Positions 39,418 to 47,393 of a stretch of DNA of 64,000 nucleotides are shown here, piece after piece; positions within the stretch are counted from its first letter, which is position 1; the number at the start of each line of letters is the position of its first letter. Made by a program: the position numbers and the translations under genes. Location: positions 10,675-74,674 of the forward strand of contig JAKUPZ010000003.1 in NCBI GenBank assembly GCA_022449765.1, given 5' to 3'. The stretch is from Dehalococcoidia bacterium. Its GTDB lineage: Bacteria; Chloroflexota; Dehalococcoidia; Lucifugimonadales; Australimonadaceae. Under the pieces are notes generated by a model. That model did not search any database. It was given only the letters and a program-made list of their open reading frames with translations, and had not been told where the DNA came from.

Positions 39418-40683
39418 TCATTCCCACGTAAATTCATACCCCCCAAGAAAAACGGTATCGCCTTCTTCTATTTTTGCACGGATTAGGGCCTCCATCACCC
39501 CCATCTTTTTCAGATGGTTGTGAAATTGTAAGCGCGCACGCCAATTGTTTAAATTAATTGTAGCTAAAATCCGGTCCGCAGGCGGACATGTGACGATAAA
39601 GCCACTCTCGTCCTTTGTTACTCTGGGGCGCTGCGAAACCGGCGGTAAAGGTTTTATGTATTTGAGCCCGCGTGGCTGCATTTCCCCTACGCTCGTATCC
39701 GTATAGTTATCTAAAAGATGATATAAATCATCAAGTCCTTCACCCGTGGCTGACGATAGTAAAAAAGGCTCCGCACCTATTTCTGCCCGCAACAGTTCTC
39801 TCTGTGCTTCAAATCGTTCTTTGACTTCAGGGATGTCCGCTTTTGTAACAATTACAAACCTTGGTTTCTCAATTAGACCTGCATTATGAAGAATAAGCTC
39901 TTGATTAATTGTCTTGTAATCAAGAACAAAATCGTCTGAAAGCCCATCAATTAGCTGAAGCAAAATAGCAGACCGTTCGCAATGGCGAAGAAACTCTAAC
40001 CCAAGTCCTTTGCCCAAATGTGCATTTTCGATAAGTCCGGGAATATCTAACATGACTAGAGAACCTGTTGAAACTTTGACCACCCCTAAAATAGGCTCAA
40101 GAGTGGTAAACGGATAATCTCCTATTTTTGAATTCGCTCTGGTGACAACATTCAGTAATGAAGACTTCCCTGCATTGGGCAATCCGACTAAGCCAACGTC
40201 CGCTAATAATTTAATTTCCAGATAAATGTCCCTCTCTTCACCTGGCTCTCCACCAATAGCAATTAACGGTTCTTGATTAACCGAGCTTGCAAAGTGAGTG
40301 TTCCCTATTCCACCTTGCCCCCCATAAGCTATTAAGATTTTTTCCCCATCTTCTAAAACTTCTGTAAGCCTTTGTTTTTCCTCATTTAAATCAATGGACC
40401 AAACAACTGTTCCAAGAGGGACATCCAAAAAAGAGGGCTTGCCCTTACGCCCGGTTCTTTGTTTACTTTTACCTGGGAGGCCATCTTCTCCAATTATTTT
40501 ATTAACCCCTTCGAGATGATTAAGTGATCTTAGGTTCTGCCTACCTCTAAGAATAATAGGCCCACCATCGCCACCATCGCCACCATCAGGTCCTCCGTTC
40601 GGTCTAAATTTTTCACGTAAAAAAGAAACAGATCCGTTTCCACCTGCTCCTGCTATTACCATTAATCTTTTTGTATCTTCCAT
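39418..40683 (-). CDS. obg: GTPase Obg
   Basis: Gly-rich Obg fold (GGPDGGDGGDGG), G-domain GLPNAGKSSLL and a C-terminal OCT-like domain. Confidence 0.93.
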   Translation of the reverse strand: MEDTKRLMVIAGAGGNGSVSFLREKFRPNGGPDGGDGGDGGPIILRGRQNLRSLNHLEGVNKIIGEDGLPGKSKQRTGRKGKPSFLDVPLGTVVWSIDLNEEKQRLTEVLEDGEKILIAYGGQGGIGNTHFASSVNQEPLIAIGGEPGEERDIYLEIKLLADVGLVGLPNAGKSSLLNVVTRANSKIGDYPFTTLEPILGVVKVSTGSLVMLDIPGLIENAHLGKGLGLEFLRHCERSAILLQLIDGLSDDFVLDYKTINQELILHNAGLIEKPRFVIVTKADIPEVKERFEAQRELLRAEIGAEPFLLSSATGEGLDDLYHLLDNYTDTSVGEMQPRGLKYIKPLPPVSQRPRVTKDESGFIVTCPPADRILATINLNNWRARLQFHNHLKKMGVMEALIRAKIEEGDTVFLGGYEFTWE

Positions 40684-40780: not shown

Positions 40781-42154
40781 CTAAGCGGACTCTATATTTT
40801 TGTTGAAATGACCTGAATGTTGTTTATTTTTTTCCAATGAAAGGACAAATTCTTTGAACTGAGGGTCTGTTATTAATGCTTCCTTTGCTTGTCCTATAGC
40901 ATAAGTAATTGTAGTTCTGTCTCTTTTCCCCAAAATTTGCCCTATTTGATCAGGGCTAAAACGGAGTTTAGAGTTCAAGAGGTATGCAGCAAGTTGCCTG
41001 GCTTTAGATGCTTCTTTAGTTCTTTGTGGGCTGATCAGTGCCTTCACCGAGATACCATATGCTTTTGAAGAAAAATCTAAGATCATTCCTTGGTCTAAGA
41101 TAGGGGGTGTTTCTTTTAATGCAGATGGGCCTAGCGCCATTTTTGCCAATTCATAGCTGGGTTCTTGCCCTGTGAACTCAATAAATGCAAGGAGGCGATT
41201 GTGAACTCCTTGAAGGGTTCTAACATTGTCATGAACATGCGTTGCTATGAATTCTAAATATTCGCGAGCGATAGGGTTCGATATTTTCTCAGTGAGGGCA
41301 TTTAAAATCGCAAGCTTTGTTTCGAATTCTGGCGCACTTAAATCTGCTTGCAAACCAGCCTCAAACCGTGAGCGTAGACGGGCTTCTAAAAGCCGTAGCT
41401 CGCCCGCGGGGCGATCACTGCTCATGACCAACTTTCCGCCGGAACGATGAAGTTCATTAAATGTATGGAAAAGACCATCTTGGGTTGCTTCTTTACCATT
41501 TAAGAACTGAATATCGTCAACCATAAGAAGATCTACGGATCGATAACGATCTCTAAAGCCATCGGTTTTACGCTCCTTGATTGCACGCAGGTATTCATTG
41601 GTAAATTGTTCTGCAGAAACGTAAATTACCCGCTTCCCGATTGAAGTAGCAAACTGCCCGATTGCATTCATAAGGTGTGTTTTTCCAAGTCCGACGCCAC
41701 CATAAAGGAAAAGAGGGTTATATGCTGAAGGCGAACCAGAGGCTAAGGCATATGCAGCTGCGTAGGCGAGTTGATTAGAAGGCCCAACTATAAAATTTTT
41801 AAATGTATATTCTGGATAGAATGCAGTCCCTCCTAAGGGGTTATTTATGCTAGAGGGAGCGTTAGGGTTTACGGGTTCCGAGAAGGAATTACCCCGAGGA
41901 TTTTCAGTGCCGACTACAAACGCCACCGTAATCTCCTGGCTTGAAATTGAAGATAACGTTTTTAGGATTAGTTTCTGTAGCCGGTCTTCAAGCCATTGGG
42001 CCGTAAACGTAGATGGAACAGAGACAACCAAATGGTTGCCTTCGAGGCGCAACGCATGGGTATTGCGGAGCCAAGTGTCGAAAGTTGGCCGGGGTATTTG
42101 TAGTTGAATCCTGCCGAGGGCAGCGTCCCAAAGACGGTTTGCCGGTTCTGACAA
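40781..42154 (-). CDS. dnaA: chromosomal replication initiator protein DnaA
   Basis: AAA+ motif GGVGLGKTHLMNAIG and a C-terminal DNA-binding domain. I prefer the TTG start at 42154 (MSEPANRLWDAAL) because GGAGG lies 5 nt upstream. The listed start 42205 is also TTG, with no SD. Confidence 0.9.
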   Translation of the reverse strand: MSEPANRLWDAALGRIQLQIPRPTFDTWLRNTHALRLEGNHLVVSVPSTFTAQWLEDRLQKLILKTLSSISSQEITVAFVVGTENPRGNSFSEPVNPNAPSSINNPLGGTAFYPEYTFKNFIVGPSNQLAYAAAYALASGSPSAYNPLFLYGGVGLGKTHLMNAIGQFATSIGKRVIYVSAEQFTNEYLRAIKERKTDGFRDRYRSVDLLMVDDIQFLNGKEATQDGLFHTFNELHRSGGKLVMSSDRPAGELRLLEARLRSRFEAGLQADLSAPEFETKLAILNALTEKISNPIAREYLEFIATHVHDNVRTLQGVHNRLLAFIEFTGQEPSYELAKMALGPSALKETPPILDQGMILDFSSKAYGISVKALISPQRTKEASKARQLAAYLLNSKLRFSPDQIGQILGKRDRTTITYAIGQAKEALITDPQFKEFVLSLEKNKQHSGHFNKNIESA

Positions 42155-42360
42155 CCTAGCCTCCGAAAGATAAATTATTAAAAGTGTTGAAGGAGAAACC
42201 TTCAAGTTTTAATAACCTATCTTAGAAACCGAAGCGAAACCAAGGACAGAATTGGAGGGATTTTGGTGATGTTTTCACTTGCAAGATTGGAAACTATAGA
42301 TGAAGCAGATAATGGCCATAAAAATGAAATGGGCTTGAATTCCAATGGTAAAATCAGAGC

Positions 42361-44015: not shown

Positions 44016-44175
44016 TGCCTTTACAAAAAAACTGCCCCGCGATCAGGGCCATCTAAGGATATCAGAATAGCTGTTCTCTTTCCAGTAACTTGCTTGCCAA
44101 TAACCTATTGTCGATCTATTAAGTGGACTTTAAGTGAAATGGGCATGTATCATCATTTTGGCAGGAGGTGGTCAA

Positions 44176-44622
44176 ATGCGAATTCCTATGAAAGTGGACT
44201 ATGGGGTAAGGGCATTAATTGAACTTGCTCAGAATATAGAATCAGGAAAGCTTGTGCGAACTGCAGAAATTGCAGAGAGGCAAGGAATACCTGAACCGTA
44301 CCTTGACCAAGTACTCACTACGCTAAATAAATTTGGTTTTATTCGCAGCCGGCGAGGCCCTCAAGGAGGGCATGTTCTTGCGCGACCTTCTTTTGAAATC
44401 ACGCTGGATGAAGTGGTGGCCACCCTCGAAGGAAGAACACCGCCATTAGAATGCTTTGATGATTCTTCGTGTTGTGCTGTTTCAGATGACTGCGCACAAA
44501 GAGATATATGGCGCGACGTTGAAGAGGCTATCAACGCAGTTCTAACGACCACTTCGATTGGCGAGCTTGCGTTTCGGCAAAAGAAGAAGGTAGTTCAACC
44601 GCTTAATTTTGTTAATTATTAA
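44176..44622 (+). CDS. Rrf2-family transcriptional regulator with Cys cluster
   Basis: N-terminus MRIPMKVDYGVRALIELA is typical of Rrf2 wHTH proteins. Cys pattern C-x5-CC-x5-C (ECFDDSSCCAVSDDC). Start set to ATG 44176, with AGGAGG 7 nt upstream. Confidence 0.85.
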   Translation: MRIPMKVDYGVRALIELAQNIESGKLVRTAEIAERQGIPEPYLDQVLTTLNKFGFIRSRRGPQGGHVLARPSFEITLDEVVATLEGRTPPLECFDDSSCCAVSDDCAQRDIWRDVEEAINAVLTTTSIGELAFRQKKKVVQPLNFVNY

Positions 44623-44660
44623 TTAAAAAGCCTAGATTTGTTTAAAGAATAGGAGATTCA

Positions 44661-45500
44661 ATGGCTACGGCATTGCAACTGACACCAGAACAAGTAAAAA
44701 GGTATAGCAGGCACATAATCATGCCTCAAATAGGTAGTGGTGGTCAGCGGAAACTAATCGATTCAAAAGTGTTGGTTGTTGGTGCTGGCGGACTGGGCGG
44801 ACCTGTCGCTTTGTACCTAGCGTTGGCAGGCGTCGGAACTATTGGATTGGTAGATTTCGATACAGTAGATTTAAGCAATCTACAACGACAGGTTTTACAT
44901 AATAGTGAAACGGTAGGCATGCCAAAAGTTGAATCTGCAATTTTAACGCTTTCTCGCTACAACCCAGAAGTAAATGTGATTCCTCACGAATTCCCAATTA
45001 ACTCAGAGAACGCAATGGAATTGATCTCTCAGTACGATATTGTTGTTAATGGAGCAGACAACTTTGCCACAAGATACTTGGTCAATGATGCGGCTTATCT
45101 CAGTAGTAAGCCTGTGGTCGATGGCAGCATTTTAATTTTTGATGGACAAGTAACGGTATATGAACCCGGTAAAGGGTGCTATCGCTGCTTATTTCCAGAA
45201 CCTCCTCCTCCAGGACTTGTGCCCAACTGCGCTGAAGCTGGTGTTTTAGGGGCATTAACAGGCACTATCGGTAGTATTCAAGCTACAGAAGTTGCAAAGC
45301 TCATTTTAGGAGTGGGAGAAACCCTGACGGAGCGACTGTTGCTCGTAGATGGGCTCAACATGGAATTTAGAGTAGTACGGACAAGAAGAAACCCTAATTG
45401 CCCTCTTTGTGGCGACACACCAACGGTTACTGAGCTCATAGACTATGAAATATTTTGTGGTTTAGTTCCAACTGAGGAGGCATCTTCTCCGACTCACTAA
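44661..45500 (+). CDS. MoeB/ThiF-family E1-like adenylyltransferase (no rhodanese domain)
   Basis: Motifs RYSRHI...GQRKL, VVGAGGLGGPVALYLALAGVG and DLSNLQRQ; two CxxC pairs (CYRC, CPLC); AGGAG SD. Confidence 0.88.
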   Translation: MATALQLTPEQVKRYSRHIIMPQIGSGGQRKLIDSKVLVVGAGGLGGPVALYLALAGVGTIGLVDFDTVDLSNLQRQVLHNSETVGMPKVESAILTLSRYNPEVNVIPHEFPINSENAMELISQYDIVVNGADNFATRYLVNDAAYLSSKPVVDGSILIFDGQVTVYEPGKGCYRCLFPEPPPPGLVPNCAEAGVLGALTGTIGSIQATEVAKLILGVGETLTERLLLVDGLNMEFRVVRTRRNPNCPLCGDTPTVTELIDYEIFCGLVPTEEASSPTH

Positions 45501-45528
45501 GGGACTAATACAAGCCAGCGGTCCAGAG

Positions 45529-46482
45529 ATGAATCGGTATAACGTCATGCGTAGCAATAACCTTATAGATTCAATAGGGAACACACCGATAGTTGAATTA
45601 CCTTCACTAAGTCCCAAAAAAGAAGTGCATATTTTTGCAAAACTTGAAGGTTCTAATCCTACAGGTTCAGTAAAAGATCGAATTGCTCGAGGTATGATCC
45701 AGTCAGCCGAAAGAGCAGGTCAGTTATCCAAGGAAAAAACTATCCTGGAACCGACTAGTGGTAATACAGGTATTTCCTTAGCAATGGTTACGCAGAGGTT
45801 AGGCTATAAGTTCACGGCTGTTATGCCTGACAATGTAAGCAAAGAGAGAAGTGATTTGCTTACGGCCTACGGAGCCGAAATTGTGTACTCCCCCGGAGAG
45901 CAAGGGTCTAACGGATCTATTGTGATGGCTAAGGAGATGGCTGGTAGAGACAGTAAATTTTTTATGCTTTATCAGTATGGAAACAATGAAAACCCACGAG
46001 CGCATTATGAAACTACCGGACCTGAAATCTACAGAGATGTTCCAGAGATAACACATTTTGTAGCGGGGCTTGGTACAGGTGGGACGCTAATGGGGGTTGG
46101 GCGCTACCTGAAAGAAATTAATCCCGCAATAGAAATAATTGCTGCTGCTCCTGAAGTGGACGATCGTATTCAAGGACTAAGAAGTTTGGAAGAAGGATTT
46201 GTTCCTCCGATCTTAGATTTGTCGCTGTTAGACTCGAGAATAATGATTAGCGGAGAAGAGAGTTTTCGAATGACTTCGCTATTGTTGAAAAATGAAGGTG
46301 TTTTTGCTGGAGTTTCGTCCGGAGCTGTATTAGGTGCTGCTCGCCGAATTGCAAGCAGAGTGCAACAAGCTAATATCGTTTGCCTGTTTGCGGACGGTGG
46401 CTGGAAATATCTGAGCACAGGCTTGTGGTCTAAAGAGTATGAGGATCTTCAAGAAGAAATAGAAGGTAAGGTTTGGTGGTAA
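45529..46482 (+). CDS. cysM: PLP-dependent cysteine synthase, CysM-like (candidate thiocarboxylate-dependent type)
   Basis: PLP lysine motif NPTGSVKDR, plus EPTSGNTGISLA. The blocks MLYQYGN, PEITHFVAGLGTGGTLMG and ADGGWKYLSTG match my memory of M. tuberculosis CysM (not verified by alignment). Confidence 0.85.
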   Translation: MNRYNVMRSNNLIDSIGNTPIVELPSLSPKKEVHIFAKLEGSNPTGSVKDRIARGMIQSAERAGQLSKEKTILEPTSGNTGISLAMVTQRLGYKFTAVMPDNVSKERSDLLTAYGAEIVYSPGEQGSNGSIVMAKEMAGRDSKFFMLYQYGNNENPRAHYETTGPEIYRDVPEITHFVAGLGTGGTLMGVGRYLKEINPAIEIIAAAPEVDDRIQGLRSLEEGFVPPILDLSLLDSRIMISGEESFRMTSLLLKNEGVFAGVSSGAVLGAARRIASRVQQANIVCLFADGGWKYLSTGLWSKEYEDLQEEIEGKVWW

Positions 46483-47165
46483 GGAAATTTGATAGCTTTC
46501 CCGGAGACGCCAATGGGAGGCAAAGATTGCGATTTCATGTTTCTGTCCGCACTTTTTCACATAGTCCCAGTAAAATGCTTATTGAAGCAATGGAGCGAGA
46601 GAATGTGAATTTTGGGATGGAAGAGCAGTCGTTTAATAGTGATGCCCTTCTTTTAGATCTGCTGGATATTCATCCGCATGAAATGGGTAATATACTTCGG
46701 CATCTGCAGCCTTCCAAAATACCGGTAATTGCAGCCATTGCTTCAGCCCAGATCGGCCTTGTGGATTCCTCCTTAGATGTTTCAGATTTTATAGTTGTTC
46801 CATGGTCCAAAGGGGAATTATCGCTTAGGATATCGCAGCAGATCGGGCGCAACACGGTAATTGAGCGGCCTGGGGTTATTCAGGTAGAGGATTTGGTCAT
46901 TGATACTGGTCGCTATGACGTATATTTAGGAGGTCGACCTGTCTTTCTGACTTTCAAAGAATACGAATTACTTAAGCTTTTGGCATCTTCGCCTGGGCAT
47001 GTTTATAGTCGAGAGACATTACTTGAGCAAGTTTGGGGATATCAATATTTCGGGGGAACTCGAACTGTGGATGTCCATGTTCGTCGGCTGAGAAGTAAAA
47101 TAGAGGATGCAGATCATTCTTTTATTGAGACTGTCTGGAATGTGGGTTATCGATTGCGAGGATGA
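46473..47165 (+). CDS. OmpR/PhoB-family regulator with degenerate (pseudo-)receiver domain
   Basis: C-terminal wHTH (LTFKEYELLKLLASSPGHVYSRETLLEQVWG...VDVHVRRLRSKIE). The receiver-like N-terminus lacks the acidic pair, Thr and Lys. Start is ambiguous: TTG 46473 or GTG 46476 overlapping the cysM stop (a full receiver fold), or ATG 46575 (truncated). Confidence 0.75.
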   Translation: MVVRKFDSFPGDANGRQRLRFHVSVRTFSHSPSKMLIEAMERENVNFGMEEQSFNSDALLLDLLDIHPHEMGNILRHLQPSKIPVIAAIASAQIGLVDSSLDVSDFIVVPWSKGELSLRISQQIGRNTVIERPGVIQVEDLVIDTGRYDVYLGGRPVFLTFKEYELLKLLASSPGHVYSRETLLEQVWGYQYFGGTRTVDVHVRRLRSKIEDADHSFIETVWNVGYRLRG

Positions 47166-47183: not shown

Positions 47184-47393
47184 ATGCCTCTATATGAGTA
47201 CGTGTGCCGGTCGTGTCAAAGTAATTTTGAGAAGCGACTTCCAATGGCTTCTAGCAGTATTGCTGTCGGCTGTCCTGAATGTGGGACTGAGGCAGTAAAA
47301 ACTTTTTCGATGTTTGCTTCAAATATCAAAAATAATTTTGGGTCAACTTCTCCACTTGGTGGCTGCTGTGGAGGGAGTTGCGGTTGTGGTTAG
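47184..47393 (+). CDS. FmdB-family zinc-ribbon protein (CxxC_CxxC_SSSS type)
   Basis: MPLYEYVCRSCQ...CPECG with a Gly/Cys-rich tail GGCCGGSCGCG. Start set to ATG 47184, with GGGAG 8 nt upstream. Confidence 0.8.
   Translation: MPLYEYVCRSCQSNFEKRLPMASSSIAVGCPECGTEAVKTFSMFASNIKNNFGSTSPLGGCCGGSCGCG

Follow-up and report, generated by a model that had tools for sequence, protein, structure and literature searches.

A conserved Rrf2-E1-CysM gene module without an adjoining carrier gene in SAR202 bacteria, related to the thiocarboxylate-type cysteine pathway of Mycobacterium tuberculosis

The DNA analysed here, called the window, is a stretch of 64,000 nucleotides (64 kb) from a Dehalococcoidia bacterium (contig JAKUPZ010000003.1 of assembly GCA_022449765.1), and our subject is a cluster of three genes on its plus strand related to the thiocarboxylate-type cysteine pathway of M. 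tuberculosis, which comprises the ubiquitin-like carrier CysO, the synthase CysM, the hydrolase Mec and the E1-like enzyme MoeZ. The genes encode an Rrf2-family transcription regulator (44176..44622, 148 amino acids; Pfam Rrf2, 1.2e-34), an E1-like adenylyltransferase of the MoeB/MoeZ lineage (44661..45500, 279 amino acids; Pfam ThiF, 1.3e-82; best PDB match, MoeB 1JW9) and a pyridoxal phosphate (PLP) synthase resembling M. tuberculosis CysM (45529..46482, 317 amino acids; Pfam PALP, 1.3e-69). An earlier note on this DNA, made from the sequence alone, had described three co-directional genes with spacers of 38 and 28 nucleotides, and both coordinates and spacings were reproduced exactly; a CysM start at Met7, as in its relatives, would make the second spacer 46 nucleotides. 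No terminator-like site was found between the cluster genes. An identical CysM-like protein is encoded by several marine contigs, among them a 281-kb scaffold of TARA Oceans, and the nearest genome record for it is a SAR202 metagenome-assembled genome (MAG) with 91% identity. Together with an atypical OmpR-like regulator in this clade, the Rrf2, E1 and CysM genes form a conserved, predicted operon.

The synthase had been likened by the earlier note to the CysM of M. tuberculosis, and comparison with solved structures bore this out, placing it with that enzyme and not with CysK or the CysM of E. coli. Its top solved relatives were the M. tuberculosis CysM structures 3DWG, 3DKI and 3DWI (303 bits, residues 7-316), with 49% identity over a full-length alignment that included the C-terminal tail (EGKVWW in the window, EGQLWA in M. 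tuberculosis), whereas E. coli CysM scored 236 bits with an alignment ending at residue 304, and CysK enzymes scored lower. The sequence blocks MLYQYGN, PEITHFVAGLGTGGTLMG and ADGGWKYLSTG are present, and the fold-type II PLP features, Lys49 and the TSGNTG loop (T76-G81), are invariant in the alignment. According to NCBIfam, the protein passed the cysKM subfamily cut-off (350 vs 344 bits) and neither the cysM nor the cysK equivalog. The phosphoserine-binding arginine, which had been proposed as a check, turned out to be uninformative: Arg218 aligns with Arg220 of the M. tuberculosis enzyme, a ligand of the O-phosphoserine phosphate, yet E. coli CysM has the same Arg, and the residue was rejected as a discriminator between phosphoserine-type and acetylserine-type enzymes. 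The lid loop reads PEVDDRIQGLR, with Asp211, seven residues before Arg218, at the position of M. tuberculosis Gly213. A second, divergent CysM-like paralogue (L049:20178-21116, 312 amino acids, 42% identical to the window CysM) is encoded 2.3-3.3 kb before the window start, on the minus strand of the window; it has a WW tail, a Gly-type lid loop, EPRLGEKLQGLR, and no adjoining carrier gene.

For the E1, the description as a MoeB/ThiF-type enzyme with two CxxC pairs and no rhodanese domain agrees with our results. ThiF was the only domain found by Pfam, with neither a rhodanese nor a fused ThiS domain, and the CxxC pairs (C172/C175 and C247/C250) are accompanied by a P-loop, a catalytic-loop cysteine (Cys190) and TELIDYExFCG, a motif conserved at the C-terminus. 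The fused rhodanese of the MoeZ type is thus absent from this protein of 279 amino acids. The best-scoring NCBIfam models all missed their equivalog cut-offs (PRK08762, 379 bits with a cut-off of 449; MoeZ, 356 with 647; UbaA, 338 with 450), and PRK05690 for MoeB was passed with 294.6 bits against a cut-off of 266, although this is a subfamily model and passing it does not establish a molybdopterin role. The E1 (44661-45500) is 83-95% identical across the orthologous loci L007-L013, compared with 43-61% for DnaA (40781-42205) and 50-73% for Obg (39418-40683) in the three of those loci holding both. Judging by these identities, constraint on the E1 is stronger than is usual for a MoeB-like enzyme, which would fit a hub enzyme with several partners.

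The Rrf2 gene has GGAGG 8 nucleotides upstream of its start, and its product contains both the winged-helix domain and the three C-terminal cysteines of IscR/NsrR/RirA-type regulators, for which Fe-S binding is a prediction. It passed the NCBIfam rrf2_super cut-off and reached none of the CymR, IscR, RirA and NsrR equivalog cut-offs. Its cysteines are arranged as C93-x5-C99 followed by C100-x5-C106, which the earlier note had read as a C-x5-CC-x5-C cluster of the Fe-S type. The part of this claim that stood is a three-cysteine motif, C-x6-C-x5-C, typical of Fe-S Rrf2 proteins and conserved in 8/8 orthologues, and its residues Cys93, Cys100 and Cys106 are candidate Fe-S ligands. Cys99, the extra residue of the CC pair, is not conserved and occurs only in this window when compared with L007-L013. 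Within the 160 nucleotides upstream of the gene, no inverted-repeat operator was found, and promoter-like matches were no commoner than in shuffled sequence.

In order to place the cluster, ten genome loci and 80 metagenome loci with this synthase subfamily were typed by their neighbouring genes. A ThiS-family carrier gene with the signature HRFVN...LPAxAGG adjoins cysM in 57 loci, accompanied by a gene for a JAMM hydrolase, an E1 gene or both. Type A has the order JAMM, carrier, CysM, as in M. tuberculosis, and type B, found in Ktedonobacteraceae, has rhodanese-E1, carrier (PF02597), CysM and JAMM (Prok-JAB), all domains being confirmed. Type C consists of JAMM, bare E1, carrier and CysM, and type D of Rrf2, a CysK-like gene, an E1 with an N-terminally fused ThiS, carrier and CysM, sometimes followed by JAMM. 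The E1s of type D (L053, L067, L100, L116 and others) thus have a fused ThiS (PF02597) besides the free-standing carrier; reading their N-terminal extension as a rhodanese proved wrong, as Pfam identified it as this ThiS domain. The remaining arrangement, bare E1 and CysM with or without a preceding Rrf2 gene and without a carrier, is represented by at least 17 loci: the window and eight other SAR202/Dehalococcoidia loci (group RE1), six loci upstream of nusA-infB (group RE2), and L112 and L122. At L085, the E1 and CysM genes lie 1.2 kb apart, also with no carrier in between.

The carrier-less module, with spacers of 14-100 nucleotides, occurs in two unrelated contexts, near L25/oriC in SAR202 and upstream of nusA-infB in RE2. 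In RE1, RE2 and type-D loci, the E1 gene is preceded by an Rrf2 gene. The nearest relatives of the window E1 sit inside carrier-CysM operons; among carrier clusters, type-D E1s scored 420-450 bits, compared with 300-360 bits for the other types, and the window E1 was closest to RE2 and type-D E1s (approximately 70% identity). The carrier-less module thus probably arose from a type-D-like operon; in that case a CysK-like gene, a ThiS domain fused to the E1 and a free-standing carrier must have been lost. Neighbour-joining supported RE1 with a bootstrap of 100% and, on concatenated E1 and CysM, RE1 plus RE2 with 65%, and a single clade of all carrier-less CysMs, which have Asp or Glu in the lid loop, was unsupported (bootstraps of 1-2%). 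By family placement and gene order, the module belongs to the lineage of thiocarboxylate-type cysteine pathways and is neither an ordinary CysK/CysM gene nor a set of chance neighbours.

The earlier note had also claimed that no ThiS/MoaD/CysO-like carrier is encoded near the cluster, and this held over a wider range, as none was present in the window, in approximately 75 kb of scaffold or in any orthologous cluster examined. No carrier-sized open reading frame (ORF) with a ThiS-like Gly-Gly end was found in the 64-kb window. A tblastn search with the Ktedonobacteraceae carrier gave no match in the window or in SAR202-type loci, and a protein search with the same query returned only close Ktedonobacteraceae relatives. 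Several ORFs next to cysM were considered as carriers and rejected. Those downstream of cysM in RE2 are nusA, a ylxR-like gene, infB and truB, and ORFs of approximately 100 amino acids adjoining cysM in L051, L063 and L073 have no carrier features.

The companion claim, that no JAMM protein is encoded nearby, stood only for the window, in which a JAMM search found none. An intact Prok-JAB gene of 143 amino acids lies at window-equivalent 66.6-67.0 kb, 2.6 kb past the window end and approximately 20 kb downstream of cysM (L131:4190-4621, minus strand of the window). This Mec-type JAMM contains NECCG and HSHTGSEARLSDTD, with the Glu, HxH, Ser and Asp residues of the metal site intact. Against a hidden Markov model (HMM) built on cluster JAMMs it scored 140 bits, and among these JAMMs those of type D are closest to it (43% identity); further homologues (39-48% identity) are named CysO-cysteine hydrolase by the Joint Genome Institute. 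The earlier description of a thiocarboxylate cysteine pathway without a carrier gene was therefore right in family placement and in the absence of the carrier, and has to be amended in that an accessory JAMM exists, so that the pathway looks dispersed and not simply lacking accessories.

We consider it roughly an even chance (a probability of about 0.5) that the module is a dispersed, reduced variant of the M. tuberculosis-type pathway with its carrier encoded elsewhere. In this proposal, the E1 would adenylate the C-terminal Gly of a ThiS/MoaD-family carrier whose gene lies at another site in the genome and which might also serve molybdopterin or thiamine synthesis. Since the E1 has no rhodanese domain, sulfide or a persulfide donor distinct from the E1 would supply the sulfur. 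CysM would then form PLP-aminoacrylate, probably from O-phosphoserine, and take the sulfur of the carrier thiocarboxylate, after which the Mec-type JAMM encoded approximately 20 kb away beside selD would free cysteine from the carrier. Expression might be tuned to Fe-S, redox or cysteine demand by the Rrf2 protein, whose three conserved cysteines would probably bind an Fe-S cluster for this purpose. We infer the distant carrier, the substrates and the regulatory signal, whereas the gene identities, family placement, synteny, local lack of a carrier and nearby JAMM rest on observation. The sharing of an E1 between carriers has a precedent in mycobacteria, where MoeZR serves both MoaD and CysO (PMC3227635). 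SAR202 bacteria rank among the most numerous cells in the dark ocean. No sulfite reductase was found in their genomes (PMC5864207), so that abundant free sulfide is not expected and their route of cysteine synthesis is a practical question. We favour the dispersed pathway because of this reported lack, the retained JAMM and the linkage of E1 and CysM in two genomic contexts.

Several findings weigh against a dispersed pathway with a distant carrier. An HMM built from 54 carrier sequences, which gave 124-131 bits on known cluster carriers as a positive control, found no match at E<=10 in six frames of the window, of the matching part of the TARA scaffold (192-267 kb) or of all the carrier-less loci, at least 17 in number. 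In SAR202, moreover, the JAMM gene is physically linked to selD and not to the E1-CysM pair. Both remaining enzymes also carry clade-specific changes, which in the E1 adjoin the catalytic Cys: the residue directly before it is Asn189 in carrier-less E1s and Ser in 25/28 carrier-linked E1s, and the residue before the second CxxC is Asn244 in the former and Asp in 29/29 of the latter. The lid-loop position of CysM is Asp or Glu in all 17 CysMs of RE1, RE2 and E3 and also in L063 and L085, whereas Gly is found in 56/57 carrier-linked CysMs and in E. coli CysM. Locus L068, whose carrier is displaced by only 3.5 kb, keeps the Gly, and this suggests a functional shift in the carrier-less loci and not a simple relocation of the carrier gene. 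In the aligned sequences, the signature residues of E1 and CysM have changed in step with the disappearance of the carrier gene beside them; since the carrier-less clades may be of common descent, such a correlation does not prove a functional shift. Lys204, which is Glu in the SAR202 clade, was inconsistent across the carrier-less clades and was dropped as a signature, and weak alternative-frame matches of a first carrier HMM over the 3′ end of the E1 gene were rejected as artefacts, since that HMM was contaminated with alternative-frame and E1 sequence and a clean HMM lost all of them.

These signatures could also be read as a loss of dependence on the carrier, CysM having gone back to small-molecule donors (sulfide, thiosulfate or a persulfide of low molecular weight, for example). 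We hold this, the main rival, to be a possible but less probable explanation. As tentative is its counterpart for the E1, namely that the enzyme serves only the carriers of molybdopterin, thiamine or tRNA thiolation and that its adjacency to cysM is an operon remnant under shared Rrf2 control. In vitro, the CysM of M. tuberculosis can use sulfide. None of the orthologous clusters contains the carrier, their E1s lack the ThiS or rhodanese modules that are fused to related E1s, and the change of the lid-loop Gly to Asp or Glu is specific to carrier-less CysMs. The E1 substitutions point in the same direction, as Asn at position 189 also occurs in E. coli ThiF and Asn at position 244 in E. coli MoeB, and the E1 scores above the NCBIfam MoeB subfamily cut-off. 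A CO_deh_flav_C protein, a subunit of a molybdenum cofactor-type enzyme, is encoded on the same scaffold, so a MoeB function would be needed anyway. M. avium is listed with cysM and moeZR and without cysO (PMC3227635, Table 3).

Against a carrier-independent CysM, E1 and CysM have stayed linked over deep divergence in two genomic contexts that are unrelated, and the Mec-type JAMM has been retained and conserved; no use of a hydrolase of this type without a carrier is known. The reported absence of sulfite reductase from SAR202 also speaks against it. In addition, Gly occupies the signature position in E. coli CysM, an enzyme that works with sulfide and thiosulfate, and Asp is thus not simply the state of an enzyme without a carrier. 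Whichever reading applies, the module is a defined case of either carrier sharing or lost carrier dependence in an E1 system, and the pathway exists in a conserved form with no adjoining carrier gene and with matching signature changes in both remaining enzymes.

The position of the JAMM gene raises a further explanation, that the bare E1, CysM, JAMM and SelD handle selenium instead of, or besides, sulfur. selD ends 18 nucleotides before the JAMM start, and the pair occupies L131:3122-4621 (window-equivalent approximately 66.6-68.1 kb, minus strand). This selD has an in-frame TGA, for selenocysteine (Sec), at the active-site position (MEKDEFRLTDLATCAG-U-AGK). The gene order FtsH, selD, JAB, RecO recurs in a second SAR202 lineage, whose record annotates a selD product of 349 amino acids. 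The comparison of this pair also covered L130 and L132-L136, and the JAMM is conserved in other SAR202 MAGs. Outside this group, selD lies directly upstream of the JAMM-E1-carrier-CysM genes in 6/6 type-C loci with upstream sequence (L068, L078, L079, L080, L092 and L123), and within 3 kb of JAMM-carrier-CysM genes in four further loci (L058, L066, L070 and L101). These are bona fide selD genes that pass the TIGR00476 and PRK00943 equivalog cut-offs, with Sec (L068, L092) or Cys (L058, L079, L080) at the active site, and the E1s linked to them have no rhodanese domain. MoeB has been listed as a marine selenoprotein family (PMC2398784).

We give selenium handling little credence. The two routes it could take, both improbable in our view, are the formation of free selenocysteine from a carrier selenocarboxylate and the delivery of selenium to SelD. 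A chalcogen relay of bare E1, CysM, JAMM and SelD, in SAR202 perhaps even without a ubiquitin-like carrier, is likewise a long shot; SelD would replace rhodanese as the donor to the E1-activated carboxylate, and the resulting seleno- or thio-carboxylate would lead to free selenocysteine or to a protected selenium pool. If true, such a relay would bear on selenium traffic to or from SelD, and the selD-JAMM-E1-carrier-CysM operon would be a new selenium-utilisation trait. However, a SelD that itself contains Sec implies an ordinary Sec-tRNA pathway, which is sufficient alone to explain selD. The selD-JAMM pair is 20 kb from E1-CysM in SAR202, and no selD was found within 7 kb of type-B and type-D clusters. 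In the literature searched, we found neither this chemistry nor any publication linking selD or selenophosphate to the thiocarboxylate cysteine pathway. The linkage of selD to JAMM-E1-carrier-CysM operons was likewise not described there; its repeated occurrence points to a possible sulfur-selenium connection, and it is the most surprising by-product of this analysis.

Compared with the mec-cysO-cysM and moeZ genes of M. tuberculosis (EC 2.5.1.113), the SAR202 system has a synthase of the same CysM subfamily, with the 49% identity, the tail and the Arg220 equivalent described above, as well as an E1 of the MoeB/MoeZ lineage and a Mec-type JAMM in the genome, and in neither organism are the parts in a single operon. 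SAR202 differs in having no cysO adjoining cysM or within approximately 75 kb, in an E1 gene that adjoins cysM and encodes no rhodanese, and in a JAMM gene beside selD rather than cysM. Its regulator is an Rrf2 protein and not the actinomycete factor AosR, and Gly213 of the lid loop is replaced by Asp. A 2022 review stated that CysM of the M. tuberculosis type is found only in actinobacteria (PMC9547175). Contrary to this, our sequence comparison places such enzymes in Chloroflexota (SAR202, Dehalococcoidia and Ktedonobacteraceae) and on many metagenome contigs.

Operons combining ThiS/MoaD, E1-rhodanese, JAB and cysteine synthase genes were described as type 4c by Iyer, Burroughs and Aravind in 2006 (PMC1779556). 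The Ktedonobacteraceae loci L014-L016 are of this type, and like SAR202 they belong to Chloroflexota and have the E1 gene upstream of CysM, with identities of 53% for E1 and 55-57% for CysM. Relative to them, SAR202 lost the carrier between E1 and CysM, the N-terminal rhodanese and the downstream JAB, and gained Rrf2. The type-D clusters are nearer, as they contain the closest carrier-linked E1s (approximately 71%), an upstream Rrf2 gene, the TELIDYExFCG tail and the closest JAMM (43%), and they differ in the CysK-like gene, fused ThiS and free-standing carrier that SAR202 does not have. A further likeness is to the relays of Thermus TtuC, Haloferax UbaA and mycobacterial MoeZR, in which one rhodanese-less or multi-purpose E1 could serve several distant carriers. 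Those E1s are not linked to a cysteine synthase gene, and the use of several carriers by the SAR202 E1 is our suggestion only.

Directly downstream of cysM, an atypical OmpR-family regulator with a degenerate receiver domain is encoded (46476..47165, plus strand, 229 amino acids). Trans_reg_C was its only Pfam domain, with no Response_reg match even at E<=5, and its orthologue in L050 gave a weak GlnR_1st match. The gene is syntenic in L007-L009, L011-L013 and L050. The overlap of its start with the cysM stop points to translational coupling, so that in the SAR202/Dehalococcoidia clade the operon probably ends with this gene or with the one after it. An FmdB-type zinc-ribbon protein follows (47184..47393, plus strand; Pfam Zn_ribbon_8, TIGR02605), with a C-terminal tail, CCGGxCGCG, that is conserved across L007-L013 and ends in Gly. 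The synteny of this gene does not extend beyond the SAR202/Dehalococcoidia clade, which makes it a doubtful member of the module.

The Gly-terminal, conserved tail of the zinc-ribbon protein makes it conceivable that the E1 acts on a substrate other than a beta-grasp carrier, either on this tail or on the C-terminus of CysM itself. The CysM tail of M. tuberculosis occupies the active site of its own enzyme, and peptide C-termini are the targets of some E1-like enzymes, for example MccB. We regard such a substrate as very unlikely. The RE2 loci share the E1-CysM module but have no zinc-ribbon gene, nusA-infB coming after cysM there. The WW tail is common to carrier-linked CysMs, and low-complexity tails are general in the FmdB family.

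The cluster is surrounded by housekeeping genes, with L25, fmt and dnaA upstream and Lit and MazG downstream. dnaA is on the minus strand, and the GC skew switches sign around this region (approximately 36-42 kb), which places the cluster within a few kb of a likely replication origin. A GC-rich hairpin followed by a T run is located at 44034-44049 on the minus strand, just upstream of the start codon of L25 (TL5-type, 235 amino acids), and may be a leader element.

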